From Chitinophagales bacterium (lineage in GTDB: Bacteria > Bacteroidota > Bacteroidia > Chitinophagales > Saprospiraceae): a stretch of DNA of 64,000 nt. Location of the stretch: positions 78,978 through 142,977 of the forward strand of contig JAAFJY010000001.1 of NCBI GenBank assembly GCA_013299105.1, written 5' to 3'. The notes below the pieces were generated by a model that ran no database searches, had not been told where the DNA came from, and saw only the letters and a list, made by a program, of their open reading frames with translations. Every line of letters begins with the position of its first letter. Within the stretch, counting starts at the first letter, position 1. Of the stretch, positions 2,456 through 56,457 are shown piece by piece. The position numbers were made by a program, and so were the translations under genes.

Positions 2456-2502
2456 CAAGATGTCCAATTTATTTAATCTGCGGCCCATACAAGAAATCCC
2501 GT

Positions 2503-2578: not shown

Positions 2579-2736
2579 CTCGCTTGATTGTTGGGACCGC
2601 CTTGCTCCGAAGTTTTCACTACTCCGGGAACTAAAAAGCGGAATTATGCTTTTATCTGTAAACTTTGTAAATTGTGTCGCTTGCCAGAAAACCCCTGCTA
2701 TTTTGCATCCAAGCCAAAAGTAACCCACGAACCTTT

Positions 2737-9525: not shown

Positions 9526-9589
9526 AACAAATCATAAGCAACATGTCTAAAGGGGTAGCATCTTTGGACGCATAACTTGAATAGAACTG

Positions 9590-9886: not shown

Positions 9887-10023
9887 GAGAGCGTAAAAAA
9901 AGAAGGTGGACAGATTTGGGTTTAGTGAAAAAAGAAAAGCAACTGGATGAAAGGAAGTTGTGTTCTTTTTTTACTAAACCTTAAAAGCAAATATGGCCAC
10001 ATTATTTTAGCTCAAATACTAAG
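9883..10023 (+). mobile_element. MITE family 2, copy 1 (short subtype)
   Basis: gagcgtaaaaaa...tttgggtttagtgaaaaaa...aactgga...ttattttagctcaaatac; similar to 12101, 34309 and 40750. Starts at the TAG stop of the upstream gene. Confidence 0.8.
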
Positions 10024-10079
10024 GCACCTGCCTGGATGGGCCTTCAATAAAAGGCCCATCCAGGCAAAAATTCATCTCG

Positions 10080-10625
10080 ATGCTGCGAATTGCGCTGGAC
10101 ATGGACGAGGTCGTCGCCGATGTTCTACCCAAGTTTTTAGACCTCTTTGAACAGTACAATGGCAAAAGACCCAGCCCAGAAGAACTGGCTGGTCGAAAAA
10201 TTTACGACCTCCCAGGAGGCAAACAAGTACGACAGCATATTTACGACAAAGGTTTTTTCCTCGATCTACCATTGATTCCGGGGGCCAAAGAAGGCGTTTT
10301 GGAGCTGTCCAAGCATTATGAAATTTTCTTTGTGACCGCAGCACAAGAGTTTCGCAATAGTTTTGAGGACAAATACGATTGGTTGATCCAGCATTTTCCT
10401 TTCATCGACTGGCGTCATTTTGTGTTTTGTGGCGATAAAAGTGTCATTCAAACCGATTACCTCCTGGATGACCACGCCTTCAACCTGCGCACCTTCAGCG
10501 GGAAAGGACTATTGTTTACAGCCTACCACAACCTCAACGAAACTGAATTTACCCGCCTTGACGATTGGAGCGAAGTGTTGGCTTTTTTTGAAAATGAACG
10601 CACTACGAAATCCACTGCCCCTTGA
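10080..10625 (+). CDS. 5'(3')-deoxyribonucleotidase (NT5C, HAD family)
   Basis: IALDMDEVVAD HAD motif I, FFVTAA, K..WL..HFPF, DYLLDD. Confidence 0.9.
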   Translation: MLRIALDMDEVVADVLPKFLDLFEQYNGKRPSPEELAGRKIYDLPGGKQVRQHIYDKGFFLDLPLIPGAKEGVLELSKHYEIFFVTAAQEFRNSFEDKYDWLIQHFPFIDWRHFVFCGDKSVIQTDYLLDDHAFNLRTFSGKGLLFTAYHNLNETEFTRLDDWSEVLAFFENERTTKSTAP

Positions 10626-11035
10626 GTTGGAAGAATAAAATCCAAGCGCTGCTGCGCTTGAAGATCAAATACGCAGCGTCGGCAGTTGTAGCTACTACAG
10701 TCGATTATGGCGTGTTTTTTTACCTTAGCGAGACCCTGAATTTTTCAGTGGCCAAAGCCCAAAGCATCGCCTATCCAGTGGGGGTGTTGGTAAACTTTCT
10801 GCTGCAACGGCGTTTTGTTTTTACCCAAACCCGCTCACTCTGGATGACCTTTGGCTTGGTCGTATTGGTATCTACTGGTGGCTTGCTGCTCAGTCGTTTT
10901 TTGATGAAAGGTTTTACCGATCACATTTCTTTTTTGAATGAATACAGAATTGTTGCTAAAGTGATGACTTCAGGTATCGTATTTTTTTACAATTTCTACT
11001 TAAAACGCTACGTCTTTGAAGGGAAATTACTGTAA
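10622..11035 (+). CDS. GtrA family membrane protein
   Basis: Four hydrophobic helices, ATTVDYG, NFLLQRRFVF, AK..TSGIVFFYNF..KRYVF; overlaps upstream stop. Confidence 0.85.
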   Translation: MSWKNKIQALLRLKIKYAASAVVATTVDYGVFFYLSETLNFSVAKAQSIAYPVGVLVNFLLQRRFVFTQTRSLWMTFGLVVLVSTGGLLLSRFLMKGFTDHISFLNEYRIVAKVMTSGIVFFYNFYLKRYVFEGKLL

Positions 11036-11315
11036 AGCAGCAGGAATTTCTGTAATGAGCATCGCCTACAAATAGCCGGCACAACCGACGAAAATTGTCA
11101 TCTTTTCTGACTAAAACCTACTGATTTATATTTTTTTATGTAAAAATAATTTTATATTTATCAGCCCATAGGACTGCTGTTCAATTATTTAGCCCGTACT
11201 ATTCTGCCCAAGTGTCATATTTTTTTTGACATTCACAAGTAGATATTGTTCTGAAAACTTCGGAGAAGTTTCCGTAGCTGAGAATTTTGTGATTTTCATG
11301 TTGAAAAGGAGGCGT

Positions 11316-11437
11316 TTATGACCGCGAAGCGGGCCAATTCTGCAAACTCTTTCAAATTCTAGTTAGGTCAACGTCATACAAGTAATTTTGTAATTCTTTA
11401 ATTCTGCCATTCTGAGAATTCTGGTTTAGACAAAAAA
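11316..11437 (+). repeat. REP-like element related to the 2240-2578 repeats
   Basis: gcgaagcgggccaattctg..ggtcaacgtcata and aattctggtttagacaaa shared with the 2.2-2.6 kb locus. Confidence 0.7.
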
Positions 11438-11440
11438 TAC

Positions 11441-11605
11441 CTAGTGGTACGAATTACAAATACCCCCTAGGTTGCGGGCAGGCTATTTGGCTTTGTAGCA
11501 AGGCGAGAGGAGGGAAAATAGTGGACTATTTGACCGACGAACAACGCAGCTACGGGGACAAAGAGCCCCTGGAACTTGGGGCAGATTTACAATTTGGACC
11601 ACTAG
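11441..11605 (+). mobile_element. MITE family 1, copy 1 (165 bp, CTAG at both ends)
   Basis: Imperfect 21 bp terminal inverted repeats ctagtggtacgaattacaaat / atttacaatttggaccactag; 5 differences from the copy at 19901. Confidence 0.88.
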
Positions 11606-11801
11606 CTTGACTATTGTGATCGCCGTTCTCCGAATTTTTCAATATTGTTACAAAATAGAAATAAATCACAAACATTTGATATTCAGATAGATAAATCATT
11701 CTACATCTTGTTCGTCTTTGCTTATTTTCCTTTGTAATTTACACAACAACTTGGATGTTCACATAACAACAAGGTAATCTGATGCTGGTTATCAGCAACT
11801 T

Positions 11802-11846
11802 TAGGGTTTACCCTATTTTACTACCTGTCAATATCTTCTAATTTTG
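11802..11846 (+). promoter_or_regulatory. TAGGG-N4-CCCTA box plus Bacteroidota -7 promoter element (unit A)
   Basis: tagggtttacccta 11802-11815, 23 nt spacer, taattttg 11839-11846. Confidence 0.7.
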
Positions 11847-11850
11847 CGAC

Positions 11851-12065
11851 AGTGAAAAAGGGAGGATTTTTCCTCAAGCCAACAGTGAACTGTTTACTTG
11901 ATTTTTCACACCTAAAGCTTCGCCTACTACCCATATCTATGCGAAGCAGCCGTTTCCCGGCTTATTTACAGAACCTGTGCATTTTAGTAAACATACCGTT
12001 TATTTTATATCCGAGAACCATCTGTCAATGGAATGAGAGGCCGCCTAGGGGGCCTTTCTTTTTTT
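11851..12065 (+). ncRNA. Candidate structured small RNA A
   Basis: Between the promoter and the terminator aggcc-gcctaggg-ggcct-ttcttttttt. Hairpins gtgaaaaa/tttttcac, gagga/tcctc, aacag/ctgtt, gcttcgc/gcgaagc, agccg/cggct. No credible ORF contained within it. Confidence 0.6.
12038..12065 (+). terminator. Rho-independent terminator of unit A
   Basis: aggcc/ggcct stem followed by a U tract. Confidence 0.7.
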
Positions 12066-40899: not shown

Positions 40900-41112
40900 A
40901 TGTTCTGAACTAAGGTACGCATTTATTGATCCAAACTAGGATCAGGGGCTGATTTTTTTCATTTCAGACCATATTTCAAAATTCGCCTTCTAACATTATC
41001 CCTTCATTTTCAGCTATCTTTTAGCCAAAAAAAGGCCCAAAACTTGATTCTCTCTTACTTTTCCTGCACTTTTGATCTGCCCCGAATATTATTATACACC
41101 AAAACCCTAAAA

Positions 41113-43674
41113 ATGAAGACTTGCCGCCACCTCTTGTGCTGGGGCCTCCTTGCCCTTGGCTTTTTGTCAGCTACACATTTATTTGCCCAAAAAACCTATG
41201 CCTTGGTCATTGGGCTTTCAAAGTACAAGGTACTCACGCCTTTGGAATACGCTGATCGGGATGCTTTGGCCTTGGTCGATTATTTACAAGACCAACAAAT
41301 ACCTGCCGAGCAAATCCGCCTTTTTCTCAATGAAAATGCGACCAGAATCAACATCGTTGACGAATTGTTTAACCTCAGCAAAGTATTAAAAGCCCATGAT
41401 CGCCTGTATTTTTATTTTGGTGGGCATGGCGACTTAGAGGCGCAGCTTAGTCACGACAATGCCCTCCTGTTGCTTTACAATTCCTTCAAAACTGGCTACT
41501 TGCAAGGCAACGATTTCCTAAGCTTGGGTGAGCTAAAAACCTGGTTCGGCAACTTGAGCAGCAAGCAAGTGGAGGTTGTTTTCATCGCCGATGCTTGCCA
41601 CTCAGGAGCCTTGATCGGAGGCCAGGAAGGGTACTCCAAAACCCAAAAGGCCCTGCACGAAAACTGGGGCAAAGTGACCAAAATCCTATCCAGCCAAGCA
41701 GGTGAATACTCGCTGGAAGGCAAACAATGGGGCGGTGGACGTGGCCTTTTTTCCTACCACCTCATCAATGGCCTGGCTGGGCGGGCCGATCAAAATGGCA
41801 ACCAAAAGGTGTCCTTGCGCGAATTGGATGCCTACCTCAAAGCAAATGTAGCACGCCAGGCGGCCCCCAACGTCCAAACTCCCGTAGCCTTGGGCGATCC
41901 CAACCTGATGCTGGCCAAGACCAGCGCCATAAACCTGAAAAAACTAAGCGATGCCGAAAGGCGCAACGTACCACTCATCAGCGAAGTGAACCTCAAAAAC
42001 CGGGCCGCACCACTCGAAGACCTACTGGTAAAAATGGACACCAGCATCGTGGAGGCTTACAAAAGATTTACCCGCTCACTCAAAGAAAAAAGGCTGGCCT
42101 CACACGACGACCCCAATGACTACGCCTTGTTGCATTACAAAATGCTGGAAAAACGAAAAGTACCCGACACCCTACTCAACATCATGAAGCGCAACTTGGC
42201 GGCGGCTTTGCTCCAGCGTGAAGTGGACATCATGCTAGAGCCCCGACAAAATGCTCGGTCCTTTTTCATGGTCAAAGAAGAAGCAGTGGAAAAAGCCATC
42301 CGTAATTTGGACGAAACCGCCCTGCTATTTGGCACCGATCATTACTTTTATAATTTCCTTCAGGCCCGCAAACTGGTGCTCAATACGCTATACACCAAGC
42401 CTAGCAAAAGCTTGGAGACCCCGATTGACGATATCCTGAACGAGTATAAGCGCTCCACCCAACAAAAAATCAGTACTTTGCTCAGGAGTCTGGAACTGGA
42501 ACCCAACATGGTTTCTACTTATTTGCTCCTCTCTAGATTTTATACTACCGACTCAAAGCGGGATTCGGCGGTGTATTACCTGGAAAAGGTCACCGATCTC
42601 TTGCCCAACAACCTCACCCTCAATTGTGACGCTGGTGATATTTACAGCCGCATAGAATACCAGGAAAATGGGAAACGCCTGGCGCATCCAAAGGCGATAT
42701 ACTACCTCGAAAGGGCCATTAAGCTCGACAGTACTTTTTTACGCCCTTACATCCAGTTTTCAGAGATGTACACTGGCCGCCGTAGAAATGATGATTACCA
42801 TGATTTTACAAGGGCCATTCCCTATTTACAAAAATCATTGCGTTTGTTGGAAAAACCACTGGAAGAGATCAAACAAATGGGTTTTGACAAACCCGTAGGG
42901 AAAGCCAATTTCATGCAACCTAGTAGACAACGGGGTGATTTTGGGCTGACGCTGTCACAGTATCTTTGGTTGGAATACAGTTACGCACAAATTGGCGATT
43001 CAATCAACGCCCACAAGTACGAGCAAAAATTGGTCAACACTTGCACAGAGGTAAATGCTGCCAATTTTATGATGCAGGCTGCCATAAATTATTATTTTCT
43101 TTTTGGCGTAGACTCTAGTTTCCTCCACTTGAAAAAAAGCCTGGCTTTTATGCTGGCCGCCCAAAAAAAGATGGAAGCTGACCTGGCCCTGGCCAATATT
43201 GAGGACCAAGCTTTCCAAAACATTCTCTACCGAGAGAACCTCAAGGCCATTGGGGCTACTTATCGGAACCTTCAGCGCTACACCGAAGCAGAACAGTATT
43301 TGCTCAAATCAATTGCTGTTTCCGTAGAGGGTTTTCCCTATCTGGATCGCATGAAAATGATGGGAAGTGGAGTTTACGAAATGAAGGATCGCGAAATTAC
43401 CTTTCCACTGGGGCTCGGAATCGCAGGCCAAAATGTTTACCATTATCGGGTAGAACCTCACCATGAATTATTTTTGCTTAACTTAGAACAAAATAGACCC
43501 GAAGTGGCGCTGCAATGGTTGGAAAAAGCCCTTCAGGTTTCGGTCAAAGAAAATGGCAATGACATTTCTGGCACTCCCTACCGTACTTCAGCATTAAAAA
43601 CCTACAAAAACCTGGATGTTGATGCATTCAATGCGCTTTATGACAAATATTTCCCAAAGACGGACAAGAAATAA
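41113..43674 (+). CDS. Exported caspase-like (peptidase C14) protein with C-terminal TPRs
   Basis: Signal peptide ..HLFA|Q; YALVIG..Y..L.YADRDA, FYFGGHG (His), IADACHSG (Cys), G.G.FSYHL..GL.G.AD, Q.P; then TPR helices. Confidence 0.88.
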   Translation: MKTCRHLLCWGLLALGFLSATHLFAQKTYALVIGLSKYKVLTPLEYADRDALALVDYLQDQQIPAEQIRLFLNENATRINIVDELFNLSKVLKAHDRLYFYFGGHGDLEAQLSHDNALLLLYNSFKTGYLQGNDFLSLGELKTWFGNLSSKQVEVVFIADACHSGALIGGQEGYSKTQKALHENWGKVTKILSSQAGEYSLEGKQWGGGRGLFSYHLINGLAGRADQNGNQKVSLRELDAYLKANVARQAAPNVQTPVALGDPNLMLAKTSAINLKKLSDAERRNVPLISEVNLKNRAAPLEDLLVKMDTSIVEAYKRFTRSLKEKRLASHDDPNDYALLHYKMLEKRKVPDTLLNIMKRNLAAALLQREVDIMLEPRQNARSFFMVKEEAVEKAIRNLDETALLFGTDHYFYNFLQARKLVLNTLYTKPSKSLETPIDDILNEYKRSTQQKISTLLRSLELEPNMVSTYLLLSRFYTTDSKRDSAVYYLEKVTDLLPNNLTLNCDAGDIYSRIEYQENGKRLAHPKAIYYLERAIKLDSTFLRPYIQFSEMYTGRRRNDDYHDFTRAIPYLQKSLRLLEKPLEEIKQMGFDKPVGKANFMQPSRQRGDFGLTLSQYLWLEYSYAQIGDSINAHKYEQKLVNTCTEVNAANFMMQAAINYYFLFGVDSSFLHLKKSLAFMLAAQKKMEADLALANIEDQAFQNILYRENLKAIGATYRNLQRYTEAEQYLLKSIAVSVEGFPYLDRMKMMGSGVYEMKDREITFPLGLGIAGQNVYHYRVEPHHELFLLNLEQNRPEVALQWLEKALQVSVKENGNDISGTPYRTSALKTYKNLDVDAFNALYDKYFPKTDKK

Positions 43675-45073
43675 GGTACTGACAGGGGCGCTTGGCAGGC
43701 TGGGATTGGTATTTTTACTGGGCTGGGCTCCATTTCAAGCCCCAGCTCAAAAGCCCGATACCAACTTCAAACCTGCCAATGCCAACCCTTTTTTAGTGCC
43801 GGAAGACAGCTCTATTTTTCGGGACAAGTACATCATTTCGGAACTCGAAAAAGTGCAGTATGCCAAGTATTCTGAGGACCTGAAAAAAGCTGCCCTGCAA
43901 AAACTGCTCGAAAACCAGAAACTCCAAACCATTGCCCTGGCCCAAAAACTCAAAACCGAACAACTACAAGCCGAAGCTGCCCGCAAGGAATCAGCAGCAA
44001 AACGCAAGGAAGAAACCCAAAAACAAAAAATCAAGCAACTCGAAATCGCCCAGCTCAACCAAAGGCTGACTCTCCAGCAGCGCACCCGCAATTTCTTGTA
44101 CCTGGTGGTGGGCTTGCTGGCTACGCTAGGATTGTCGCTTTTGTGGCTTAACCGTCAATTGTTCAAGAGAAACAAGTCTATCCAGCGCCTATCCATTGAA
44201 AATTTGCAAAAAGAGCAGGAAAAACAGCAAATTTTAGCCAGCCAGAATGAAACCCTGGAGATTCAGGTCAATGAAAGAACGGCTGCGCTCAAAGCCTCCC
44301 AAGCCCAACTCATCCAATCCGAAAAACTGGCCTCACTGGGTGAGCTCACTGCGGGCATCGCCCATGAGATCCAAAACCCCTTGAATTTCGTCAACAATTT
44401 CGCCGAAGTAAGTGCTGAATTGCTGGATGAAATGAATGAAGAATTGGAGAAAGGCGATACCGATGAGGCCAAGGCAATTGCCAATGACCTCAAGTCGAAC
44501 CTGACAAAAATCGCCTCGCACGGCAAGCGCGCCTCCTCCATCGTAAAAGGCATGTTGGAGCACTCGCGCAGCGGCAGCGGCGTAAAGGAGCTTACCGACC
44601 TCAATCAAATGGCGGAGGAATACCTGCGCCTGGCTTATCACGGCCTTCGGGCCAAAGACAGCAGTTTCAGCGTACAGTTTGAAACCGACCTGGATCCTCA
44701 AATACCCAGAATTGAGGTAATTCCTCAAGACCTGAGCAGGGTTTTACTCAACCTGATCAACAATGCTTTTTATGCCAGCAACGAGCGGGCAAAAACCGAT
44801 GCAGCACTAAAGCCAATGGTCAGCATCAGCACGCGTAAATTGAGTGATAAACAGGTAGAAATCCGCGTACAAGACAATGGAAATGGCATCCCTGAAGGCA
44901 TCCGTGACAAGATTTTCCAACCCTTTTTTACTACCAAGCCTACTGGGCAGGGTACTGGATTGGGGTTGAGCTTGGCTTATGACATTGTGGTGAAGGGGCA
45001 TGGGGGGCGTTTGGAAGTGGAGTCGAAAGAGGGAGAAGGGACGGGATTTATTGTGAAATTGCCCTTTTTATGA
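43640..45073 (+). CDS. Histidine kinase 1 with only a short coiled-coil extracytoplasmic region
   Basis: Signal-like ..APA|Q, ~100 aa coiled coil, one TM helix, [25 protein letters not shown]-box, N/G1/F/G2 boxes. Overlaps the caspase gene; start may be 43616-43640. Confidence 0.88.
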   Translation: MTNISQRRTRNKVLTGALGRLGLVFLLGWAPFQAPAQKPDTNFKPANANPFLVPEDSSIFRDKYIISELEKVQYAKYSEDLKKAALQKLLENQKLQTIALAQKLKTEQLQAEAARKESAAKRKEETQKQKIKQLEIAQLNQRLTLQQRTRNFLYLVVGLLATLGLSLLWLNRQLFKRNKSIQRLSIENLQKEQEKQQILASQNETLEIQVNERTAALKASQAQLIQSEKLASLGELTAGIAHEIQNPLNFVNNFAEVSAELLDEMNEELEKGDTDEAKAIANDLKSNLTKIASHGKRASSIVKGMLEHSRSGSGVKELTDLNQMAEEYLRLAYHGLRAKDSSFSVQFETDLDPQIPRIEVIPQDLSRVLLNLINNAFYASNERAKTDAALKPMVSISTRKLSDKQVEIRVQDNGNGIPEGIRDKIFQPFFTTKPTGQGTGLGLSLAYDIVVKGHGGRLEVESKEGEGTGFIVKLPFL

Positions 45074-45126
45074 TGCCGAAAATTTTAAAAATCATGCCTT
45101 TTATGATGCCGAAAATTAATTTTTTG

Positions 45127-45185
45127 GTGAAGGGGCGTGAGGGGAACTTAGAGGTGGAAATCCAAATCAAGAAGGAACCATTTTT
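45127..45185 (+). pseudogene. Degenerate remnant of a histidine-kinase C-terminal tail
   Basis: gtgaaggggcgtgaggggaacttagaggtggaa..gaaggaaccattttt resembles VKGHGGRLEVES..EGT.F with an indel; preceded by a ~22 bp direct repeat spanning the HK1 stop. Confidence 0.5.
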
Positions 45186-45215
45186 CCCCTTAAACTAAAC
45201 AGCTAAAACCGACAA

Positions 45216-48200
45216 ATGCGCAACACCACCACAACCCTATTTTTCTTTTTTTGCAGTCTTTTCACCTTAAACGCACAAGATCAGCTAGCAATTTACAAGC
45301 TGGAAGATCAACGCATTACCCTCAACAAAGGCTGGAAATGGCAAAAAGGCGACCAAGCCGCATTTGCCGAGCCAACTTTTAATGACTCGAGCTGGAAAAA
45401 ATTCGACCCAACCAAAGACATTCACGACTATCCTCAACTATTTGACGGGGAAGTTCGCTGGCTAAGGATTCGTTTTGAAGTCGATCAAAAACCTACTACC
45501 GCATTGGGTTTGTCCTTAACCCAAGCTGGTGCTTCTGAAATTTACCTGAATGGAAAACTGATCCACAAAATCGGACAAATCAATTCAAAAGCAAGCATCG
45601 CCCAAGACCCCCTTGAATACCCTTTTAGCTTACCCATTGATGCTGCGGGCGAGTACGTTTTGGCTGTCCGGTATGCCTTGCAGCCCAATATCCGCTACAC
45701 CACCGTGTATGGTTTGACCTTGAACAAAGTTTTTGATGCTTCTTTGGTCAATTTGGTCCCTACCCAGGATGAGCAGCGCGAGTTTAGGGTCTATTACACC
45801 GGCATGGAGACTTTCAAAATTGGTGTATTTGTGATGCTGTTTATTTTGCACTTCGCATTTTTTTTGTACCAAAAGAACAACAAAATCCAACTCTTTCTAA
45901 GCATCTTTTTTCTAGGGACAGCGTTGCAGTATGTGTTCAAAATTCTAGGACAAAATGAAGTTTCCGTTGAAGCACGCTACTACCTGATCAATATTTCATT
46001 TTGGTCTTCGAATATTGGACAATTATTTGGCCTTGCGGCGATGTACCAACTTACTCGGATTAAGCGAGACTTTTATTTTACCGTAATCCTTGTCGTTAGT
46101 GCCATCATGTTGCTCGTTTCAAGTTTAACATATGGTAGGCTTTGGATCCCTTTTTCCTTGATTCAGGCATTGATCAGTTTTTTGATCACCCTCCGCTTGT
46201 CCCTGCTTGGGGTCAAAAAGCAATTGAGAGGCTTCAAAATATTGACTGTTGCGGTAATGATCAGTTCTTTGGGGTTTGTATTCATTGAGTTGGTCAACCT
46301 TAACGTATCTGTTCCAGGCTTACTGGTGGACATTGTTTTTAATCTATCCATAATAGCCGTGCCCATTGGTTTTTCCTTGTACATGGGCCTTGATGCAAGC
46401 AATCAAAACAAAGCATTAAGCGCAAAATTGGCTGAAAACGAAGTGCTAAAAGACCAGACCATTGCCCAGGAGCAGGAAAAGCAGCAAATTTTGGCCCAAC
46501 AGAACGAGACCTTGGAAAACCAAGTGACCGAACGCACGGCTGAGTTAGCAGCTAAAAATAAGGATTTAGAAATAGAGGCTGCTTTGGATAAAATTCGAAC
46601 TGTTTCCTTGGCCATGAAGCGGTCCGATGAAATCGAAACCGTAGTATCGGTATTGTATGAAAAACTAAAAGAACTGGGTTTGGTATTCGACGGAGGGGCG
46701 GCTATTCACGTTTTTGAAGAGGGCTCAAAAGATGCCGCCATCTGGGTTGTTTCGCCACAACAAGCGCCCACCAAAATAGACCTACCTTATGACAAAGAAG
46801 CATTTGTAGACAACCCCATTATTTTGGATGTATGGAAGGCCAAAGAAACAGGACAGCACATCTTTAACAAAAACTATTCCTTTGAAGAAAAAAACAGGTA
46901 TTTTCAGTATGTATTCAAACACAATGATTATGACAAAATCCCTGAAATAGGCAGGAACTTTATCCTTTCGGTACCTGCTTATACGGCTACGTTTGTAGCA
47001 GAGCACAACTCATTGCTTGGTGCAAATAGCTGGACAGGAGAGTTGTTTACGGCATCAGAATTTGAGCTACTGAAACGAGTCGCCAAGGTTTTTGAGCAGG
47101 CTTATACCCGTTCCCTTGATTTGCAAAAAGCAGAAGCACAGGCGAGAGAAGCACAAATTGAAGTAGCCTTAGAAAGGGTAAGGAGCCGAACAATGGAGAT
47201 GCAAAAAAGTCAAGAACTTCGGGAGGTTGTAGCCACTATCTATGATCAGCTACAAAACTTGGGTTTTACTTATGGCGCTTTAGGCATTGTGATTATGGAC
47301 GAAACATCTGGCGATATGGATTGGTGGATGGCTGGTTTTGGAAAAGAAGCCTACCCAGAAAATTATTACATCCCTTTTTTCGATCACCCCTTTTATTTGG
47401 CACAGCTTAATGCGTGGAAAGAAGGCAAAAAATTTGTGGTGCTGGAAGCATCCGGTGAACAGAAAAAGGCATACGATGAAGTCATTTTTAGCAGAACAGA
47501 TTTTGTCAGAATTCCATTACAAGCACAGCAAATCATGTTGGCGTTTGAAAAAGTAATTTTTTCAAACGCCAACATGAAACATGGAGCCTTGTCATGGGGT
47601 ACCGACCCGATTGATGACAACCGTGCCCAAATCCTACAACGATTTGCAGTGGTATTTGAACAAACCTATACGCGTTTTTTAGACCTACAGAAAAAGGAAG
47701 AGCAAGCTTTCAATCTGGCCGAAGAAAAACAGAAATTAGAACGAACCCTCAGCGAGCTCCGCTCCACCCAAGCCCAACTGATCCAATCCGAGAAACTGGC
47801 CTCACTGGGCGAACTCACTGCAGGCATCGCCCACGAGATCCAAAACCCACTGAACTTCGTCAACAACTTCGCCGAAGTCAGCGCAGAGTTACTGTCCGAA
47901 ATGAACGAAGAACTCGACAAAGGCGACACCGCCGAAGCCAAGGTCATCGCTGCCGACCTGGTGCAAAACCTGCAAAAAATCAACCACCACGGGCAGCGGG
48001 CTTCTTCCATTGTCAAGGGCATGTTGGAGCATTCGCGGGCCAGCACGGGCCAAAAAGAACCCACCGACCTCAATCAGATGGCCGATGAATATTTGCGTTT
48101 GGCCTATCATGGCTTGCGGGCCAAAGACAGTGGCTTCAATTGCCAATTGGAAGCGAATCTTGACCCAAACCTGCCCAAAGTGGCTGTCATTCCGCAAGAT

Positions 48201-48536
48201 ATTGGCCGGGTACTACTCAACCTGATCAACAACGCCCTGCACGCGGTGCAAGAAAAAGCCAAAATGGCCATTGAAGGCTACGAACCAAAGGTCAGCGTCA
48301 GTTCAGCTTTGGTTAACGGACAAGTTGAGCTTAAGGTGCAAGACAATGGCATGGGCATTCCAGAGGGCATTCGGGAGAAGATTTTCCAGCCGTTTTTCAC
48401 TACTAAGCCTACCGGGCAGGGCACGGGTTTGGGGCTGAGTTTGGCTTATGATATTGTGACCAAAGGACATGGGGGCACGATCGAAGTAGAGAGCCAATCT
48501 AATGCGGGCACCCAATTCGTCATTCGTTTAGTGTAA
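45216..48536 (+). CDS. Histidine kinase 2: beta-sandwich plus 7TM-type sensor, two GAF-like repeats, kinase core
   Basis: LNKGWKW..GD..A sugar-binding-like N-terminus, ~7 TM helices, repeated IE.AL..R..S..M..S.E units, H-box and CA domain. Confidence 0.88.
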
Positions 48537-48584
48537 ACTTGTAAACAGCAGCAACATTTTGTAATTTTACCTTCAAATAACTGG

Positions 48585-50297
48585 ATGATGATCAAGATTC
48601 CATACGGTGAAAGCGATTTTAAAAAGTTGATGCTGGAAAACTACTTCTACCAGGATCGTACCCATTTCATTGAGCAGCTCGAAAAATGGAACTCCAACTA
48701 TCCCGTTTTTTTACGCCCTCGTCGATTCGGCAAAAGCCTGTTCATCAGTACACTTCACCATTATTATGGTTTGGAATACAAAGACGATTTTCAAGCCCTT
48801 TTTGGCAATCTATACATTGGCAAGCACCCAAGCGAATCTGCCAATTCTTATCTGGTCCTGCGTTTTGAATTCAGTCGCATTGATACTGCTACCCATGAAA
48901 GTACCTACCATGGCTTTTTAACCAATGTCATTTCTGGAGCGCGTACTTTTTTGGGCGCTTATGGAGAATTTTTCACTTTAGAACAGCAAACCATTATTGA
49001 AAACGGGAAAAGCCCTGAAACAGTGGTTAAGGCAATTTTTGATTTTACAAAAAAGAATAAAATCCCCCACAAAATCTACCTCCTCGTTGACGAATACGAC
49101 CATTTTGCCAATGAATTGTTGTCCTTTGATCTTGATCGTTTTAAATCCAATGTGAGCACCAATGGTTTTGTGCGCAAATTTTATGAAAGTTTCAAAACCG
49201 CTACTGGTGAAGGAATCGTTGATCGGATTTTCATCACGGGCGTTTCCCCCATCACCCTGGATTCTTTGACCAGTGGTTTTAACATTGGTGACAACATTAG
49301 TTTGAACCCCATTTTCCACGACATGATGGGCTTTACCCATCCAGAGGTGGAAGCTATTTTACATCAATCGGCTATTCCAATCGAAAAAATACCCGAAATG
49401 ATGGCTGACTTGGAGGCCTGGTATGACGGCTATCGTTTTACGACCCGAGCCAATCACCAGTTGTTCAATCCAGATATGGTGCTCTATTTCTTGAAAGAGT
49501 ACAGCATAATATCGCAATATCCCGAAGTCATGTTGGATACCAATGTGATTTCAGATTATCGAAAAATTCAGAACACCTTTAAAATAGGCGGCGAAGAAAC
49601 CGAAAAATATGAGCTATTGGAGACTTTGGTGCAAAAAGGCTACATTGATTTTCCGCTGACCCGGCTTTACAATTTAACCCTCGATTTTACCCAGGATGAT
49701 TTTTTGAGCTTGTTGTTTTACATGGGCATGCTCAGTTTTCAAGAAGAGGCCATCATTGGCTGGCGCTGCAAAATCCCCAATTACGTCATCAAAAAACTCT
49801 ACTTTGAGTACTTCAAGGCCATCTTTTTGGCCAAAACCCGTTTTGCAAAAACTACCCGCCCAATTGCACAAACCATTGATGCCCTATTGGGGACTGGCAA
49901 TCCCGAGCCTTTTTTCAAAATAGTCGAACAAGTATTGCTCGAAAACCACTCCAATCGCGACGAATTGGCCTACGGCGAAAAGCATTTGCAAACCTTGATG
50001 GTCGGCTTGTTATTCCCCTACGAATCCTATTACATCCACAGTGAATACGAAACCAAACGGGGCTACCCAGATATTTTTCTCGAAAGAATGCCCAATAAAC
50101 CCCTCCAATTTGACATCGTTTTGGAATTAAAATACGTCAAAAAATCAGCTGAAAAAACCTTGGAAAAAGTCATTCAACAAGCAGAAATCCAATTGGACGA
50201 ATACATGCGCAGTGAACGATTTTCTCGTCCGGATGTACGAGGGTTTTATGCTGTTTTTTTGGGTGGCGAGGTTTACCAGTGGAAAGAATGGGCGTAG
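48585..50297 (+). CDS. AAA-ATPase-like protein fused to a PD-(D/E)XK nuclease (copy 1, intact)
   Basis: KIPYG.SDF, RPRRFGKSL Walker A, LLVDEYD Walker B, FITGVSP; C-terminal HSEYE..GYPDIFL..ELKY. Confidence 0.88.
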   Translation: MMIKIPYGESDFKKLMLENYFYQDRTHFIEQLEKWNSNYPVFLRPRRFGKSLFISTLHHYYGLEYKDDFQALFGNLYIGKHPSESANSYLVLRFEFSRIDTATHESTYHGFLTNVISGARTFLGAYGEFFTLEQQTIIENGKSPETVVKAIFDFTKKNKIPHKIYLLVDEYDHFANELLSFDLDRFKSNVSTNGFVRKFYESFKTATGEGIVDRIFITGVSPITLDSLTSGFNIGDNISLNPIFHDMMGFTHPEVEAILHQSAIPIEKIPEMMADLEAWYDGYRFTTRANHQLFNPDMVLYFLKEYSIISQYPEVMLDTNVISDYRKIQNTFKIGGEETEKYELLETLVQKGYIDFPLTRLYNLTLDFTQDDFLSLLFYMGMLSFQEEAIIGWRCKIPNYVIKKLYFEYFKAIFLAKTRFAKTTRPIAQTIDALLGTGNPEPFFKIVEQVLLENHSNRDELAYGEKHLQTLMVGLLFPYESYYIHSEYETKRGYPDIFLERMPNKPLQFDIVLELKYVKKSAEKTLEKVIQQAEIQLDEYMRSERFSRPDVRGFYAVFLGGEVYQWKEWA

Positions 50298-50309
50298 CGG
50301 TAACCATAT

Positions 50310-50498
50310 GTGGTTGCTCCTATACACAACATCCAAGACAAAATCTTCCAGCCTTTTTTCACCACCAAACCGACCGGGCAAGGCACGGGTTTGGGGCCGA
50401 GTTTGACTTATGATATTGTGACGAAGGGGCATGGGGGCACCATTGACGTAGAGTGCCAATCTAATGCGGGCACCCAATTCGTCATTCGTTTAGTGTAA
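50310..50498 (+). pseudogene. Duplicated 3' fragment of histidine kinase 2 (G2 box tail)
   Basis: [44 protein letters not shown] matches the HK2 end; no H-box. Confidence 0.85.
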
Positions 50499-50545
50499 AC
50501 TTGTAAACAGCAACAACATTTTGTACTTTTACAGGAAATAAATAG

Positions 50546-52263
50546 ATGATGATCAAAATTCCGTACGGTGTAAGTGATTTTAAGTCTTTGATAGAAGAAG
50601 GTTATTTCTATCAAGACCGTACTCATTTTATCGAGGAATTAGAAAAATGGAATTCTAAATATCCCGTTTTTTTGCGTCCGCGTCGGTTCGGAAAAAGTTT
50701 GTTTATTAGCACCTTGCACCATTATTATGGCTTGGAATACCGGGATAATTTTCAAAACTTGTTTGGTCAGTTGTACATTGGCAAAAACCCTACCCCGCTG
50801 GCCAACCAATACCTGGTTTTGCGCTTTGAATTCAGTCGCATTGATACCGCGAACCATGAAAGTACTTATCAGGGGTTTTTGATTAATGTTGTTTCGGGGG
50901 CACGTGCTTTTTTGGGTGCTTACAGAGACTTCTTTAGTGCAGAAGATCAAAGAACCATCTTGGCACAAATCAGTCCGGAAGCGGTTGTCAAAACGATTTT
51001 CAGCATTGCCAAAGCGAATAAAATACCTCACAAAATCTATTTGCTCATTGACGAATACGACCACTTTGCCAATGAACTGCTCTCATTCGACCTAGAGCGT
51101 TTTAAGTCAAACGTGAGTCACAACGGCTTTGTCCGCAAGTTTTACGAAAGCCTCAAAACTGCCGCTGGCGACGGCATCGTAGATCGCATCTTCATCACTG
51201 GCGTATCACCGATTACTTTGGATTCGCTCACCAGTGGCTTCAACATCAGCAGCAACATCACTACGAATCCCATCTTTCACGACATGATGGGCTTTACACA
51301 CGAAGAGGTAGAAGCTATTTTGTACAAATCCAACATCCCACAAAGTGTAGTACCGGGCATGATGTCCGACTTGGCCGAATGGTACAACGGCTATCGTTTT
51401 GCCACCAAGTCCAAACACGCCCTTTTCAACCCCGATATGGTGCTGTATTTTTTGCAGCAATACAGCATCGACGGCAGCTACCCAGAGGTCATGCTGGACA
51501 CCAACGTGGTATCGGACTACCGCAAAATCAGGAACCTTTTCAAGATCGGAGGCGTAGAAAACTCCCGGTACGAATTATTAGAGCAGTTGGTGCAGCACGG
51601 CTCAATTGAGTTCAAACTCACCCAATTGTTCAACTTGGACTATGAGCTCACTCAGGATGACTTCTTAAGCCTCCTGTTTTACATGGGCATGTTGTCATTC
51701 AACGAAAGGGTAGGCATCGGTTGGCGCTGCGATATCCCCAACTATGTCATCAAAAAACTGTATTTTGAGTATTTCACGGCGCTACATTTGGCCAACACCC
51801 GCTTTGCCACGGCTACCCGACCATCGCCCAATCGGTATCCGCCCTGATCGTTCAGGGTAACCCGGAGCCCTTCTTCCAGGTTGTGGAGGAAGTCTTGCTG
51901 GAACACCATTCCAACCGCGACGAGATGGCCTATGTTGAAAAGCACCTCCAGACCCTGATGATCGGCTTGTTGTGCCCTTACGAATCGTACTACATCCACA
52001 GCGAGTATGAGGCTCGAAGGGGCTATCCCGACATTTTCTTGGAAAGGTTGCCCAATGTGCCTCTCGAATTTGACGTGGTATTGGAGTTGAAATATGTCAA
52101 AAAATCGGAGCAAAACAAAATGCAAGAAAAAATTATTGACGCGGAAAAACAGTTGGATAGCTACCTACGCAGCGCCCGTTTTGCTCGGCCCGATGTAAAG
52201 GGTTTTTATGTGGTTTTCCTCGGAGGGGAGGTGCATCAGTGGAGGGAATGGGGGAAGTATTGA
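50546..52263 (+). pseudogene. AAA-ATPase / PD-(D/E)XK nuclease copy 2, split by a 1-nt frameshift near 51821
   Basis: ORFs 50546-51847 and 51883-52263 are collinear with copy 1; adding one base at cgaccatcgccc restores RPIAQSVSALIVQGNPEP. Confidence 0.85.
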
Positions 52264-52418
52264 ACTAGAATTTTCTACCGCCCTGTCCACCTAGTTTTTT
52301 TCGCTCCCGAAGGTTTTTGAAACAGCGAAAAATCAATAAAATTTTTAATTTTGATAATTCAGCACGGTCAGGGCTCTACTTCTCACCTTGGCATATCGCT
52401 TTAAACGAGAGAACAAGT

Positions 52419-54341
52419 ATGAAAAGCATGGCCTTTTTTATTTTGCTTTTGACGATCCCGCTATCGGGTCAGCACTCCTCTATTGACAGCCTGCAATCTG
52501 AACTTGATCGTGCGAAAAGTACCGCTACCAAAATTGCAATTTATGATCAACTATTTAAATTAGAATTCCCCAATCATGCCCAAAAAATCAACATGGGGCT
52601 GGGTGCCTACCGTTTTGCCAAAAACCAAGCCATCAAAAAACAACAAATGGATTGGGGCATTACGACTGCCTTCAACATGGTGGAACAGGATTATTTGAAA
52701 GCATTGACTTTGCTCCTAGAGATTAAACCACTGTGTGAGCGCGAACGGGATACCATTCAACTCGCTCGCTGTCTGGGTTTCATTGGATACGCTTACACCA
52801 AGTTTGATTTGAACAAAGCCTTGGAAAACTACAGGGTTTGCAAAAATTTGATGTTCAAAGCCAACATTCCAGAGCGTATTGTCCCTATTTACACCGCCAT
52901 GGGCTACGTTTTCAAAGAAGGGAACATGCCTGATTCCGCTTTGGCTTACCTTTCTCAAGGCTACCTCAGTTCAAAAAATGGGAATTCTCCCATTGATACG
53001 AGCAATTACAACATCCATTTTGGCGAAGTTTACCTGCAAAAAGGGGATACGGCGGCTGCCACCAAATATTTCAGAAAGGCCCTGCGCAGTAGTGGTGGAA
53101 TGGAAGGACAGGCACGTTACAATTTTGCACTACTCTTTAAAAAATGGGGGCAATTGGATTCAGCCAAATTTCATGCCCATCGATCCCTGGAATGGGAACA
53201 AAAAGTCAATCGAACATTATACATCTTCAAAAGTGCAGATTTGTTGCATCAACTGTATCGCAATGACAACCCAGCCCTTGCTCTGAAATATTTGGAAATC
53301 GCAAATACCAGTAGAGATAGTCTTTTTAGCCAAGATAAAATCAGAAAAATAGAACAACGCATTTTTGAGGAAAAAGAAAAGGAGGCCCAGGCCCAAAGGC
53401 AAATAGAGGCCAGACAACAGCAACTGAAAATATGGGGTATATTATTTGCGCTGTTTGGGGTTTTGATACTGGCTTTCATCCTTTACCAAAACAATCGCCA
53501 AAAACTAAAGGCAAATAAGCTTTTGGAAAAAACCTTGAGTAAGCTAAAATCCACCCAAGCCCAACTCATCCAATCCGAAAAGCTCGCCTCCTTGGGCGAA
53601 CTCACGGCAGGCATTGCCCACGAGATCCAAAACCCGCTCAATTTCGTCAACAACTTCGCCGAGGTCAGTACTGAGTTGTTGGACGAAATGCAAGAAGAAT
53701 TGGACAAAGGAGATACCGCTCAAGCCAAAGCCATCGCTGATGACCTGAAGTCGAATTTGGGGAAAATCGCCTCGCACGGCAAACGTGCTTCCTCCATCGT
53801 CAAAGGCATGTTGGAGCACTCGCGCAGCAGTACAGGCACCAAAGAACCAAGTGACCTCAATCAAATGGTCGATGAGTACCTGCGTTTGGCCTATCATGGG
53901 CTTAGGGCCAAAGACAGCAGTTTCAGCGTACAGTTTGAAACCGACCTGGACCCTCAAATACCTAAAATCCTGGTAATTCCCCAAGACCTAAGTCGAGTTT
54001 TGCTCAACCTGATCAACAATGCTTTTTATGCCAGCAATGAACGGGCAAAAACCGATACTGCACTAAAGCCAATGGTCAAAGTCAGTACACGTAAATTGAG
54101 CGATAAGCAAGTAGAAATCAGCGTGCAAGACAACGGCATGGGGGTTCCCAAAAACATCCAAGACAAAATTTTCCAGCCTTTTTTCACCACCAAACCATCT
54201 GGGTTTGGAACGGGCTTGGGCCTTTCACTCAGCTACGACATTGTGACCAAAGGTCATGGCGGAAGCCTGACCCTGGAATCAAAAGAAGCGGAAGGAGCTA
54301 CTTTCATCATTGCTTTACCCATCGAAAACCCTAAATCATGA
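52419..54341 (+). CDS. Histidine kinase 3 with exported TPR sensor
   Basis: Signal peptide ..LSG|Q, TPR helices, one TM, H-box and CA domain closely matching HK1. Confidence 0.9.
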   Translation: MKSMAFFILLLTIPLSGQHSSIDSLQSELDRAKSTATKIAIYDQLFKLEFPNHAQKINMGLGAYRFAKNQAIKKQQMDWGITTAFNMVEQDYLKALTLLLEIKPLCERERDTIQLARCLGFIGYAYTKFDLNKALENYRVCKNLMFKANIPERIVPIYTAMGYVFKEGNMPDSALAYLSQGYLSSKNGNSPIDTSNYNIHFGEVYLQKGDTAAATKYFRKALRSSGGMEGQARYNFALLFKKWGQLDSAKFHAHRSLEWEQKVNRTLYIFKSADLLHQLYRNDNPALALKYLEIANTSRDSLFSQDKIRKIEQRIFEEKEKEAQAQRQIEARQQQLKIWGILFALFGVLILAFILYQNNRQKLKANKLLEKTLSKLKSTQAQLIQSEKLASLGELTAGIAHEIQNPLNFVNNFAEVSTELLDEMQEELDKGDTAQAKAIADDLKSNLGKIASHGKRASSIVKGMLEHSRSSTGTKEPSDLNQMVDEYLRLAYHGLRAKDSSFSVQFETDLDPQIPKILVIPQDLSRVLLNLINNAFYASNERAKTDTALKPMVKVSTRKLSDKQVEISVQDNGMGVPKNIQDKIFQPFFTTKPSGFGTGLGLSLSYDIVTKGHGGSLTLESKEAEGATFIIALPIENPKS

Positions 54342-54706
54342 ACATCCTAGTAGTAGATGACGAACTGGACATCCGCATCCTTTTTGAGCAAAAATTTAGG
54401 CGCGAGATCAAGGACGGAACCTATATTTTTGAGTTTGCCCACTCGGGCGAAGAAGCTATGCTCAAACTCAAAGACGGTAGCAACAACATTGTGCTCATTT
54501 TATCAGACATCAATATGCCTGGCATGAGTGGGCTGGAGCTTTTGGGGCGGGTACGTAAAATCCATCCTGATGTGCCGCCCAAGATTTTCATGATCACGGC
54601 GTATGGCGATGAAGAAAATCGAACCAAGGCCTCCGAGCTAGGAGCTGACGACTTTTTGACCAAGCCTATTGATTTTAACAACCTCAAAGAAAAACTACAT
54701 GAATAA
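54338..54706 (+). CDS. Single-domain response regulator
   Basis: ILVVDDE, ILSDINMPGMSGLELL, MITAYGD, DFLTKP; overlaps neighbouring genes. Confidence 0.93.
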   Translation: MNILVVDDELDIRILFEQKFRREIKDGTYIFEFAHSGEEAMLKLKDGSNNIVLILSDINMPGMSGLELLGRVRKIHPDVPPKIFMITAYGDEENRTKASELGADDFLTKPIDFNNLKEKLHE

Positions 54707-55742
54707 GGTACTGGTAGTGGATGATGAGGAAGATTTGGAAGTCCTGATTAGTCAAAAACTAAGGAAGCAAATTCGCGAAAGCAAGTATCAACTGATTTTT
54801 GCCAAGGATGGCCTGGAAGCCCTGGACCTCATCAAGGCCGACCCGGAAATCATGACCGTACTCAGCGACATCAACATGCCCAAGTTGGATGGCCTTAGCC
54901 TGCTTTTGCACCTGAAAACTCACAATCCGCTGATCAAAACCATCATCATATCGGCTTATGGCGACATGGACAACATCCGTACGGCCATGAATCGGGGGGC
55001 TTATGATTTTTTGACCAAACCCATCAACTTTGAAGACCTCGAAATCACCATCGACAAAACCTTTGAGTACATCACCCAATTGCAAAATACCCTGCAGGCG
55101 ATCCGCGAAAACAACATCATGAAAATGTATGTCGATCCCTCGGTGTTGGAGTACATGACCCGCAGCGAAATTACCCAAGATTTTAGCGCCAACGAAACGA
55201 TCGAGGCCAGCGTAGCTTTTATCGACATTTGTGGGTTTACGAGCATCGCCGAGCAGGAGCCGCCCGACATCGTAGTGAACTTGCTCAACCAATATTTTGA
55301 CCTGATCGTCAAACACATCATCGCTGCCGATGGCTACGTGGACAAATTCATGGGCGACGCTGTAATGGCAGTATTCAAAGGAGGAAACCATGCCAAAAGA
55401 GCTGTACAGGCCAGTCTGGCCGTGATGCAGGAAATTGCCCAAGCCCAAGACGATTTGCAAAAACAAGTGGGCTACCAACCCCAACTGTCCATCGGGGTCA
55501 ACAGTGGCGAAATGGTATCGGGTAACATCGGAGCCATCTCGCTCAAAAGATTGGACTACACCGTAATCGGCGACGTGGTGAATACTGCCCAACGCATCCA
55601 GGTTCATGCCAGCCCAGGGGAAATTTTGTTGGGCGAAAACACCCATCAGTACATTTCATCACATTTTAATTGCCAACGAAAAGAAGATGCAGTGGTGAAA
55701 AACAAAACCAAGCCGATAGTTGTCTATCAAGTACTGGGTTAA
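54699..55742 (+). CDS. Receiver domain fused to class III adenylate/guanylate cyclase
   Basis: LVVDDE, SDINMP, KP; FIDICGFT, DKFMGDAVM, IGVNSG..G.IG, YTVIGD.VNTAQR. Confidence 0.92.
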   Translation: MNKVLVVDDEEDLEVLISQKLRKQIRESKYQLIFAKDGLEALDLIKADPEIMTVLSDINMPKLDGLSLLLHLKTHNPLIKTIIISAYGDMDNIRTAMNRGAYDFLTKPINFEDLEITIDKTFEYITQLQNTLQAIRENNIMKMYVDPSVLEYMTRSEITQDFSANETIEASVAFIDICGFTSIAEQEPPDIVVNLLNQYFDLIVKHIIAADGYVDKFMGDAVMAVFKGGNHAKRAVQASLAVMQEIAQAQDDLQKQVGYQPQLSIGVNSGEMVSGNIGAISLKRLDYTVIGDVVNTAQRIQVHASPGEILLGENTHQYISSHFNCQRKEDAVVKNKTKPIVVYQVLG

Positions 55743-55747
55743 AGTCT

Positions 55748-55778
55748 CTTCAACCTTTCAACACTTCAACCTTTCAAC
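55748..55778 (-). repeat. 4 x 8-mer GTTGA-core tandem array (minus orientation)
   Basis: ttcaacctttcaacacttcaacctttcaac between the cyclase stop and the DUF2461 start. Confidence 0.65.
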
Positions 55779-55788
55779 TCAAATAGAC

Positions 55789-56457
55789 ATGCTCCAAAAA
55801 AGCACCTTCCAATTCATCAAGGACCTCAAGCACAACAACAGCAAAGAATGGTTTGAAGCCAACCGCAAGGTTTATCAAAGCGCCAAAGAAGATTTTTTGG
55901 AGCTGGTTGCCAACCTGATCCAGGGCATCGAAGCTTTTGACCCGGCCATCGCCATGTCTCACCTGGAGCCCAAAAAATGCATTTTCCGCATCAACCGCGA
56001 CACCCGTTTTTCGAACGATAAATCCCCATACAAAAGCAACATGGGGGCTTGGTTCAGCCCTGGAGCAAAGGGCTTGCAACGCGCAGGCTACTACCTACAC
56101 CTGGAAGAAGGCGGTTGCTTCTTGGCAGGCGGCATGTACCTGCCCGAAGCCGATGCCCTGAAGAAAATTCGGCAGGAAATTGACTACAACCACCAGGATT
56201 TGCTCAATATCATGGCTGGAAAACATTTTCAGGCTTATTTCTCAGGAGGGTTTAGCCAAGAGTCCAAACTCAAAAAAGCCCCGCAAGGCTACACCGAAGA
56301 CAATCCCGCCATCGACTTGCTCAAGCTCAAAAGCTTTACTGTATCCAATAATTTTGGTGACGAAAAAACCCTTGAAAAAGGTTTTGAAGAGTTTATCTTA
56401 GAAGGCTTCAAAGCCATGCAGCCGCTCAATAAGTTCCTAAATCAGTCGTTTGATTGA
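55789..56457 (+). CDS. DUF2461 domain protein (TIGR02453-like)
   Basis: F..DL..NN.KEWF.ANR..Y, FRINRD.RFS.DKSPYK, GYYLH, L..IR.EI, LK..P.G. Confidence 0.9.
   Translation: MLQKSTFQFIKDLKHNNSKEWFEANRKVYQSAKEDFLELVANLIQGIEAFDPAIAMSHLEPKKCIFRINRDTRFSNDKSPYKSNMGAWFSPGAKGLQRAGYYLHLEEGGCFLAGGMYLPEADALKKIRQEIDYNHQDLLNIMAGKHFQAYFSGGFSQESKLKKAPQGYTEDNPAIDLLKLKSFTVSNNFGDEKTLEKGFEEFILEGFKAMQPLNKFLNQSFD

Follow-up and report, generated by a model that had tools for sequence, protein, structure and literature searches.

What would a caspase-like protease do directly in front of a sensor histidine kinase that has little more than a stub outside the membrane? The question is raised by the window analyzed here, a stretch of 64,000 nucleotides (nt) from a Chitinophagales bacterium (contig C1:78978-142977 of a 7.67-Mb genome), in which about eight genes occupy positions 41113-55742, all on the + strand. 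They encode, in this order, an exported caspase-like protein that ends in tetratricopeptide repeats (caspase-TPR), a histidine kinase with a short ectodomain (HK1), a second kinase (HK2), two AAA-ATPase_like proteins, a third kinase (HK3), a receiver protein and a receiver fused to a nucleotide cyclase (receiver-cyclase). The pairing of the caspase-TPR with the short kinase is real and strictly conserved, and with a probability that we put at roughly 0.6, the caspase-TPR would be the periplasmic input partner of HK1.

The open reading frame (ORF) of the caspase-TPR runs from 41044 to 43674, and the likely start at the ATG at 41113 yields a protein of 853 amino acids (aa; 41113-43674, + strand). 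Pfam, an AlphaFold2 (AF2) model, Foldseek and an alignment of 45 sequences together describe it as an exported Peptidase_C14 domain followed by a TPR superhelix. Peptidase_C14 (PF00656) matches residues 28-247 with 56.9 bits, against a cut-off of 21.4, and TPR models match residues 710-737; the family profile also matches consensus TPR proteins over residues 444-596. Sequence searches of the caspase domain against solved structures returned marginal matches only (GSU0716, E 0.31; MCA2, E 0.57), and a fold search was therefore needed. Foldseek relates the caspase part, at a probability of 1.0, to MALT1 (4i1p), the Geobacter caspase homologue GSU0716 (3bij) and the yeast metacaspase Yca1 (4f6o), and the repeat part to the TPR arrays of OGT, SPINDLY (SPY) and APC/C. 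In the AF2 model (mean predicted local distance difference test, pLDDT, of 85.9, built from 52 sequences) a caspase fold at residues 28-270 is connected by a disordered linker (284-299) to a helical-repeat superhelix of about 550 aa (301-846), which harbors a small beta insert at 747-778.

The original prediction, made from the letters of the window, had described a caspase-like protein that keeps both catalytic residues in GGHG and DACHSG contexts, has a signal peptide and ends in TPRs, and this description stands in every part. His105 (GGHG; codon 41425-41427, + strand), the catalytic Cys162 (DACHSG; Asp160-Ala161-Cys162 codons at 41590-41598, + strand), Asp160 and Asp50 are invariant in all 45 family members, and the invariance of the catalytic residues persists when 10 remote relatives are added. 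His105 and Cys162 align with the SGHG and DSCHSG motifs of GSU0716. The signal peptide comprises residues 1-25, MKTCRHLLCWGLLALGFLSATHLFA|QK, and thus ends LFA|QK; one is present in 43/43 full-length N-termini of the family, ending A|Q or in a close variant. Conservation is highest over residues 201-225 of the caspase domain and lowest in the middle of the TPR array, and a C-terminal KYFP motif is invariant. By its model score, the contexts of its His and Cys, and its caspase-hemoglobinase fold, the protein is a member of Peptidase_C14; it is not a member of the CHAT family (PF12770), as Pfam reports C14 and the order of domains is protease, then TPR.

Asp160, located two residues before the catalytic Cys, and Asp50, in an ADRDA segment, occupy what we take to be the positions of the acidic S1 pocket in metacaspases and MALT1. 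Given these residues, and since orthocaspases cut after basic residues (PMC6426788), the caspase-TPR is likely to cleave after Arg or Lys. Several invariant Lys and Arg residues are found in the tail and stalk of HK1.

HK1 (43622-45073, + strand; 483 aa; Pfam, family alignment and AF2 model) starts before the caspase-TPR gene ends. Its candidate ATGs at 43616, 43622, 43631 and 43640, set against the caspase-TPR stop codon at 43672-43674, yield overlaps of 59, 53, 44 or 35 nt (within 43616-43674, + strand), the range of 35-59 nt that had been expected from the sequence. The protein consists of a signal peptide, a short ectodomain, one membrane helix, a coiled-coil linker, a dimerization and histidine phosphotransfer (DHp) domain and an ATP-binding domain. 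HisKA (PF00512) matches residues 241-322 with 28.9 bits and HATPase_c (PF02518) residues 371-484 with 86.5 bits; HK1 is a class I histidine kinase, and its GTGLGLS motif is invariant or nearly so in the family.

The ectodomain (43748-44092, + strand) comprises about 113 residues, close to the ~100 first estimated, between the signal peptide (cleavage site A|QKPD) and a single membrane helix (FLYLVVGLLATLGLSLLWL; 44093-44161, + strand), which is apparent both in a hydropathy scan and as a continuous helix in the AF2 model and is followed by basic residues. No Pfam family matches the ectodomain, and a profile search of 1.84 billion representatives recovered only five proteins, all of its own family. 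Within that family it is strikingly constant. Alignment of 24 sequences revealed the motif D-x-x-x-F-x-D-K-[YF]-[IM]-[ILV]-[SA]-E-L-E-K-V-Q-Y-x-x-x-S as its most conserved part (43805-43873, + strand), with D62, D68, K69, E74-Y80 and S84 invariant; at the conserved mature end, QKPD in HK1, Q43 and the D at +3 are invariant in the 24 kinases. The AF2 model of HK1 has a pLDDT of 69, with residues 35-84 below 50, and predicts helices at 80-105 and 114-275, of which the second crosses the membrane and continues into the DHp domain. The invariant motif falls within the segment that AF2 leaves unstructured, and it therefore fits a segment to which a partner binds or which a partner cuts, or one that folds only on its partner. 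In Bacteroidota, substrates of signal peptidase I follow a Q-rule, with Gln as the first residue behind the signal peptide (PMC5837995). As Gln follows the predicted signal peptides of both proteins, the caspase-TPR and HK1 would both be exported, HK1 with a free periplasmic N-terminal tail.

Is this juxtaposition a peculiarity of one genome? Among 41 related genomes, four carry both a full-length caspase-TPR and the HK1 ectodomain, 37 carry neither, and none carries one alone. In each of the four (the window's genome, G001, G005 and G007) the kinase directly follows the caspase-TPR, which in G005 is present as three tandem genes. In a collection of 5.8 billion proteins, the HK1 ectodomain defines 22 clusters of proteins of 467-519 aa, bar one entry of 287 aa (P0012), and no TPRs occur in any of them, in a search that allowed proteins of up to 835 aa. 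Because all family members are short and none has TPRs, HK1 is no recently truncated pseudogene. Nine of the 22 clusters were looked up for gene context, and in every case with upstream DNA or gene calls, one to three tandem C14-TPR genes of ~850-920 aa stand directly in front of the kinase. The contexts examined were those of the window, G001, G005, G007, L046-48, L049-L054, L057-L059, L061, L062, L066, L145 and one record without DNA. Incomplete upstream genes in L050 and L052 belong to the caspase-TPR family by tblastn; the contig of L144 starts just upstream of the kinase, leaving only 39 codons of the preceding ORF visible, and the second tandem kinase copies in L059 and L061 stand behind another kinase of the same cluster.

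The reciprocal view, from the protease, is the same. A scan of one genome per species located 13 full-length caspase-TPR loci in 8 genomes, and the kinase ectodomain comes next in every full-length locus that extends downstream, except L063. Among 64 remoter caspase-TPR loci (40% identity or less), a kinase lies directly downstream in none. The expectation that C14-TPR genes would keep company with short-sensor kinases across genomes is thereby confirmed. In 16 related loci the caspase stop lies only 76-255 nt before the codon of the kinase's mature N-terminal Gln, and the region coding for the kinase signal peptide thus abuts or overlaps the caspase stop across the family.

The two partners also appear to have been inherited together, as the kinase tree and the tree of the adjacent caspase-TPRs contain the same three clades, with the caspase-TPR evolving faster than the kinase. 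Three modules in a single genome, a Saprospiraceae metagenome-assembled genome (MAG; L057, L058 and L062), have near-identical kinases and diverged caspase-TPRs, which fits a variable sensor feeding a constant transducer. Copies of the caspase-TPR that read as incomplete or broken are present at two loci. Between the second caspase-TPR and the kinase of L046, at 7490-7612, lies a remnant of 41 residues that is 76% identical to residues 813-853 of the caspase-TPR and is probably the scar of a tandem duplication. In a Haliscomenobacter MAG (L022/L064; G007:C24, ~72800-75400) the caspase-TPR is spread over three or four frames, either as a pseudogene or through indel errors, the contig names pointing to a long-read assembly.

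How might such a pair function? The two genes would constitute a dedicated input module whose products are both exported by the Sec/signal peptidase I route. The caspase-TPR would be a metacaspase-like protease, soluble in the periplasm and extended by a long TPR superhelix, and HK1 a kinase without a ligand-binding domain, endowed instead with a flexible periplasmic N-terminal tail that carries FxDK..SELEKVQY, a helical stalk and one membrane helix. Ligand binding would fall to the variable TPR array, the ligand probably being a protein or peptide of the periplasm. The protease domain or the C-terminal part would engage the tail of HK1, either holding it or cutting it after a basic residue, and this engagement would set the balance between kinase and phosphatase. 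The phosphoryl group would then pass to the receiver and the receiver-cyclase, shared with other kinases of identical DHp (HK2, HK3 and seven-transmembrane (7TM) kinases), and several inputs would converge on the synthesis of a cyclic nucleotide.

The notion that the caspase-TPR provides the input of HK1 rests on an invariant ectodomain motif found beside this protease alone, conserved catalytic residues, variable repeats, varying copy number and a shared compartment, and it fits these observations best. HK1 would then belong with the accessory-protein-dependent kinases, of the type of ExoR-ExoS, CpxP-CpxA and LuxP-LuxQ, an assignment for which co-occurrence, adjacency and co-inheritance provide the genomic support. 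Physical contact between the two proteins, the direction of control, cleavage and the receiver partner are all matters that we infer. Actual cleavage of the HK1 tail seems doubtful. Equally tentative is a bacterial version of a protease-activated receptor, in which a ligand on the TPRs would switch on the protease, which would clip the HK1 tail (e.g., after the invariant Lys of F-x-D-K), irreversibly flip the kinase/phosphatase state and thereby set cyclic-nucleotide synthesis; the tandem paralogues would be interchangeable detectors for different periplasmic proteins or peptides, with one kinase as their readout.

Several observations weigh against the caspase-TPR as input partner. Adjacency could mean co-regulation, with the protease as an output rather than an input, and the L063 caspase-TPR has no adjoining kinase. 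The caspase-TPR of G007 reads as broken beside an intact kinase, which may thus manage alone, unless the breaks are long-read indel errors. L053 is placed differently in the kinase and caspase-TPR trees, most loci have no receiver gene nearby (L049, L051, L053 and G007), and the cleavage of the HK1 signal peptide is predicted from sequence alone.

Co-regulation would turn the protease into an output or co-regulated cargo, such as a periplasmic processing or degradative enzyme, and HK1 into a sensor of the state of the envelope or membrane that uses its stalk or membrane helix. Operon adjacency alone cannot separate input from cargo, and kinases whose periplasmic portion is very small frequently respond to cues from the membrane or the cell interior; the intact kinase next to the seemingly broken caspase-TPR of G007 is likewise as expected for cargo. 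An invariant ectodomain motif of 20 residues that occurs nowhere else, however, is more than would be required of a spacer. The caspase-TPR gene precedes the kinase, often overlapping it, in a module that contains no DNA-binding regulator, and one to three caspase-TPR copies per kinase with diverging TPRs are typical of sensors rather than of cargo. We regard a cargo role as unlikely. The same genes could also serve conflict or defense, the exported protease acting in the periplasm as an effector or as a sensor of invader proteins, a role proposed for DdvA, and the kinase relaying the alarm to a cyclic nucleotide, a mechanism that overlaps with that of an input module. Caspase-like domains are common effectors of conflict systems in bacteria that are filamentous or multicellular (PMC7159879), PADLOC assigns the caspase domain to a caspase model and the cyclase to PycC models, a PycTM gene stands beside the module in L145, and the distribution over Saprospiraceae and Spirosomataceae is patchy across orders. 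Nevertheless, these PADLOC matches are generic, and any class III cyclase is expected to match PycC. The caspase domain is not that of the EACC1-associated caspases, whose model (NF047832) it matches far below threshold (53.8 vs 140 bits), no EACC1, NTPase, vWA or other conflict-system partner is found in the module or beside it in any locus looked at, and the neighbors are housekeeping genes. A role in defense is accordingly given a lower probability still than one as cargo.

A different origin of the pair had been proposed in the original prediction, in which HK1 was a TPR kinase whose TPR sensor had been removed and was now supplied in trans by the caspase-TPR, its stalk resembling the stretch that follows the TPRs in HK3. 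HK3 (52419-54341, + strand; 640 aa; Pfam and comparison) is a TPR-bearing kinase of rather similar architecture (signal peptide, TPR, coil, one membrane helix, kinase), and its kinase core is 85% identical to that of HK1, as compared to 73% between HK1 and HK2. The proposed likeness of the stalks was nevertheless not recovered. BLASTP picked up no similarity between DSSIFRDKYIISELEKVQY of HK1 and DSLFSQDKIRKIEQRIF of HK3, and a profile-profile comparison by hhalign of 21 HK1-type ectodomains with 85 post-TPR stalks, the family of which carries the motif TKDSLFSQEK.RQIEKL, gave a probability of 1.8%. The HK1 ectodomain is absent from all other proteins searched. Moreover, the cytoplasmic juxtamembrane linker of HK1 is of the 7TMR-DISM kinase (HK2) type, common to HK2 and the 7TM kinases and missing in HK3. 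HK1 is not a member of the TPR-sensor, HK3-type kinases, having no TPRs and no TPR-bearing relative found. On the side of the protease, its TPR part is not specifically like the HK3 TPRs (best E 0.065), and a fused caspase-TPR-kinase was not encountered, with 0/120 of the caspase-TPR relatives listed carrying HATPase_c. The high identity of the HK1 and HK3 cores itself looks like homogenization within the genome, since 85% exceeds the 56-78% found among the kinase cores of HK1 orthologues. The likeness of kinases within a genome (HK1 44270-45070 vs HK3 53544-54320; L057/L058/L062) suggests that the kinase part alone underwent gene conversion or was recently duplicated. The removal of a TPR sensor from HK1 thus finds no confirmation, and a split receptor of this descent is very improbable. 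Kinases of ~730 aa matched by the HK1 query were considered as candidate TPR kinases in relatives and were rejected as 7TM kinases that match the cytoplasmic linker only.

With the caspase-TPR retained as the favored input, the output of HK1 can be considered. The receiver-cyclase had been placed at 54699-55742 (+ strand; 347 aa), and Pfam bears out both of its domains, Response_reg (PF00072, 76.8 bits) and Guanylate_cyc (PF00211, 84.9 bits), with FIDICGFT and KFMGD readable. It is a receiver-regulated class III nucleotide cyclase, and the Lys and Asp at its specificity positions make cAMP the likely product. The stand-alone receiver of 122 aa (54338-54706, + strand) overlaps the HK3 stop with its start by 4 nt. 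Each of the two genes is single-copy in the genome, which encodes seven kinases of the HK1 type with an identical DHp helix 1 (7/7), and the same helix is present in 7TM kinases that adjoin the receiver-cyclase in other species. Since a receiver gene is not nearby in most loci, the assignment of the HK1 output rests on this DHp identity, and the receiver and the receiver-cyclase are the probable targets of HK1. L052 has caspase-TPR, HK1, receiver and receiver-cyclase in direct succession, and the cluster of L046, the same as that of the window, is closed by the receiver and receiver-cyclase.

The receiver-cyclase is kept in 11/12 genomes of the genus, and in at least six of these (G004, G005, G006, G007, G009 and G011) it lies within ~2.5 kb of a 7TM kinase, whether the module is present or not, indicating that 7TM kinase, receiver and receiver-cyclase, in that sequence, form the core pathway. 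In G005 and G007 the caspase module resides on a contig other than that of the receiver-cyclase. The caspase-TPR/HK1 pair would be an accessory input that in this genome landed beside the core pathway. Directly upstream of the caspase-TPR/kinase pair of L145, at 2459-3860, are a gene for the Pycsar effector PycTM and an isolated receiver gene. The receiver-cyclase of the window matches the PADLOC PycC models (1e-24), which may reflect only the shared fold of class III cyclases.

In the usual view, a sensor kinase in most cases binds its signal directly or through a binding protein. A search of the literature, the coverage of which is incomplete, found no description of a C14-kinase pair or of an exported orthocaspase with a dedicated kinase, which suggests that the pairing of an exported caspase-like protease with a sensorless kinase has not yet been described for two-component systems. 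The closest parallel in layout is DdvA of Myxococcus, in which a periplasmic TPR-CHAT domain faces a flexible juxtamembrane linker that it is proposed to cut (PMC11506125). Like the caspase-TPR, DdvA combines a periplasmic caspase-fold domain with a TPR array, the presumed signal-sensing part, and in DdvA the linker faces the His-Cys site, with cleavage proposed as the trigger. DdvA is, however, a single polypeptide of the CHAT family with the order TPR, then protease, and as an anti-sigma factor controls an ECF sigma factor through intramembrane proteolysis, whereas the caspase-TPR is a separate soluble Peptidase_C14 protein with the order protease, then TPR, a histidine kinase as partner and, probably, phosphotransfer to a receiver-cyclase. 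As Pfam reports C14 rather than CHAT and the domain order is reversed, the relation to DdvA is one of analogy and shared clan, not of family.

Soluble repeat proteins that partner sensor kinases, and periplasmic proteases that act on them, are both known. In the ExoR-ExoS/ChvI system of Rhizobiales, a soluble periplasmic repeat protein (Sel1, TPR-like) partners a sensor kinase, and periplasmic proteolysis gates the signaling (PMC4550343, PMC10659215). ExoR, however, lacks a protease domain and serves as a substrate for other proteases, and the periplasmic sensor domain of ExoS is folded. Nor do the two genes form an overlapping pair, and no relationship in sequence to the present pair was seen. 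Prc of Xanthomonas campestris cuts the N-terminal periplasmic part of the kinase VgrS and so changes its autophosphorylation, providing a precedent for a proteolysis-gated kinase (PMC6237974), but Prc is a general PDZ serine protease with many substrates that is encoded elsewhere, not a dedicated caspase-like partner. The bacterial orthocaspases and metacaspase-like C14 proteins resemble the caspase-TPR in their caspase fold, their His-Cys pair and their DxCHSG motif, which is associated with cutting after basic residues, and they are often fused to TPRs and other repeats (PMC3501461, PMC5756287, PMC6426788), whereas the characterized orthocaspases are cytoplasmic cyanobacterial enzymes.

Should the caspase-TPR indeed control HK1, a two-component system would receive its input from a dedicated caspase-fold protease, a new input logic in which periplasmic detection relies on proteolysis and is irreversible. 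Exported bacterial caspase homologues, which are numerous in Bacteroidota and for which no function is known, would thereby gain a concrete role. Two genes and the receiver-cyclase make up this compact system, and with cAMP as a possible readout in an E. coli cya strain, the idea lends itself to a direct test. The module is, however, rare and narrowly distributed, which limits its reach. Eight of ~185,000 species representatives carry it, in addition to the window's genome, which that scan may leave out, and the hosts are filamentous Bacteroidota of fresh water and wastewater, comprising Haliscomenobacter and other Saprospiraceae, as well as Runella and other Spirosomataceae. Because it is found in Saprospiraceae and in Spirosomataceae/Runella MAGs, one of which carries it on a 3.1-Mb contig, the module has moved between orders. 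Directly downstream of the module in L053, at 8935-11916, are a helix-turn-helix gene with HipA_C (a toxin-antitoxin type pair) and a gene with the effector-associated domain EAD11, neighbors which hint that the module can occupy variable, island-like regions.

The remainder of the window's cluster was also annotated. HK2 (45216-48536, + strand; 1106 aa) combines an exported domain at its N-terminus with some six to seven membrane helices and a long portion in the cytoplasm. The cluster is flanked by housekeeping genes that are unrelated to it (RNase E/G, a cytochrome c protein, DUF2141, DUF2461 and an amidase). The DUF2461 gene (55720-56457) overlaps the receiver-cyclase stop by 23 nt, and co-transcription with the cyclase is possible; in L046 it does not adjoin the cyclase. 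A scan for sigma-70 promoters and terminators performed no better than on shuffled sequences; the promoters of Bacteroidota are of another type. Between HK2 and HK3, the stretch 48585-51847 (+ strand) is a probable insertion consisting of the two AAA-ATPase_like genes, the first of which also has PDDEXK_9, and a kinase-tail remnant. Region 48370-52263 contains a tandem duplication whose unit is a kinase 3' end plus an AAA-ATPase_like/PDDEXK_9 gene, with a 58-bp junction that is identical at 48493-48550 and 50455-50512 and a kinase-tail remnant of 54 aa (50331-50492) between the two ATPase genes. Other orphan ATPase genes are located at comparable positions in or beside related clusters (ATPase_2/AAA_16 in L046; AAA_14 plus DUF4143 in L144 and L051), which suggests repeated insertion at these sites.

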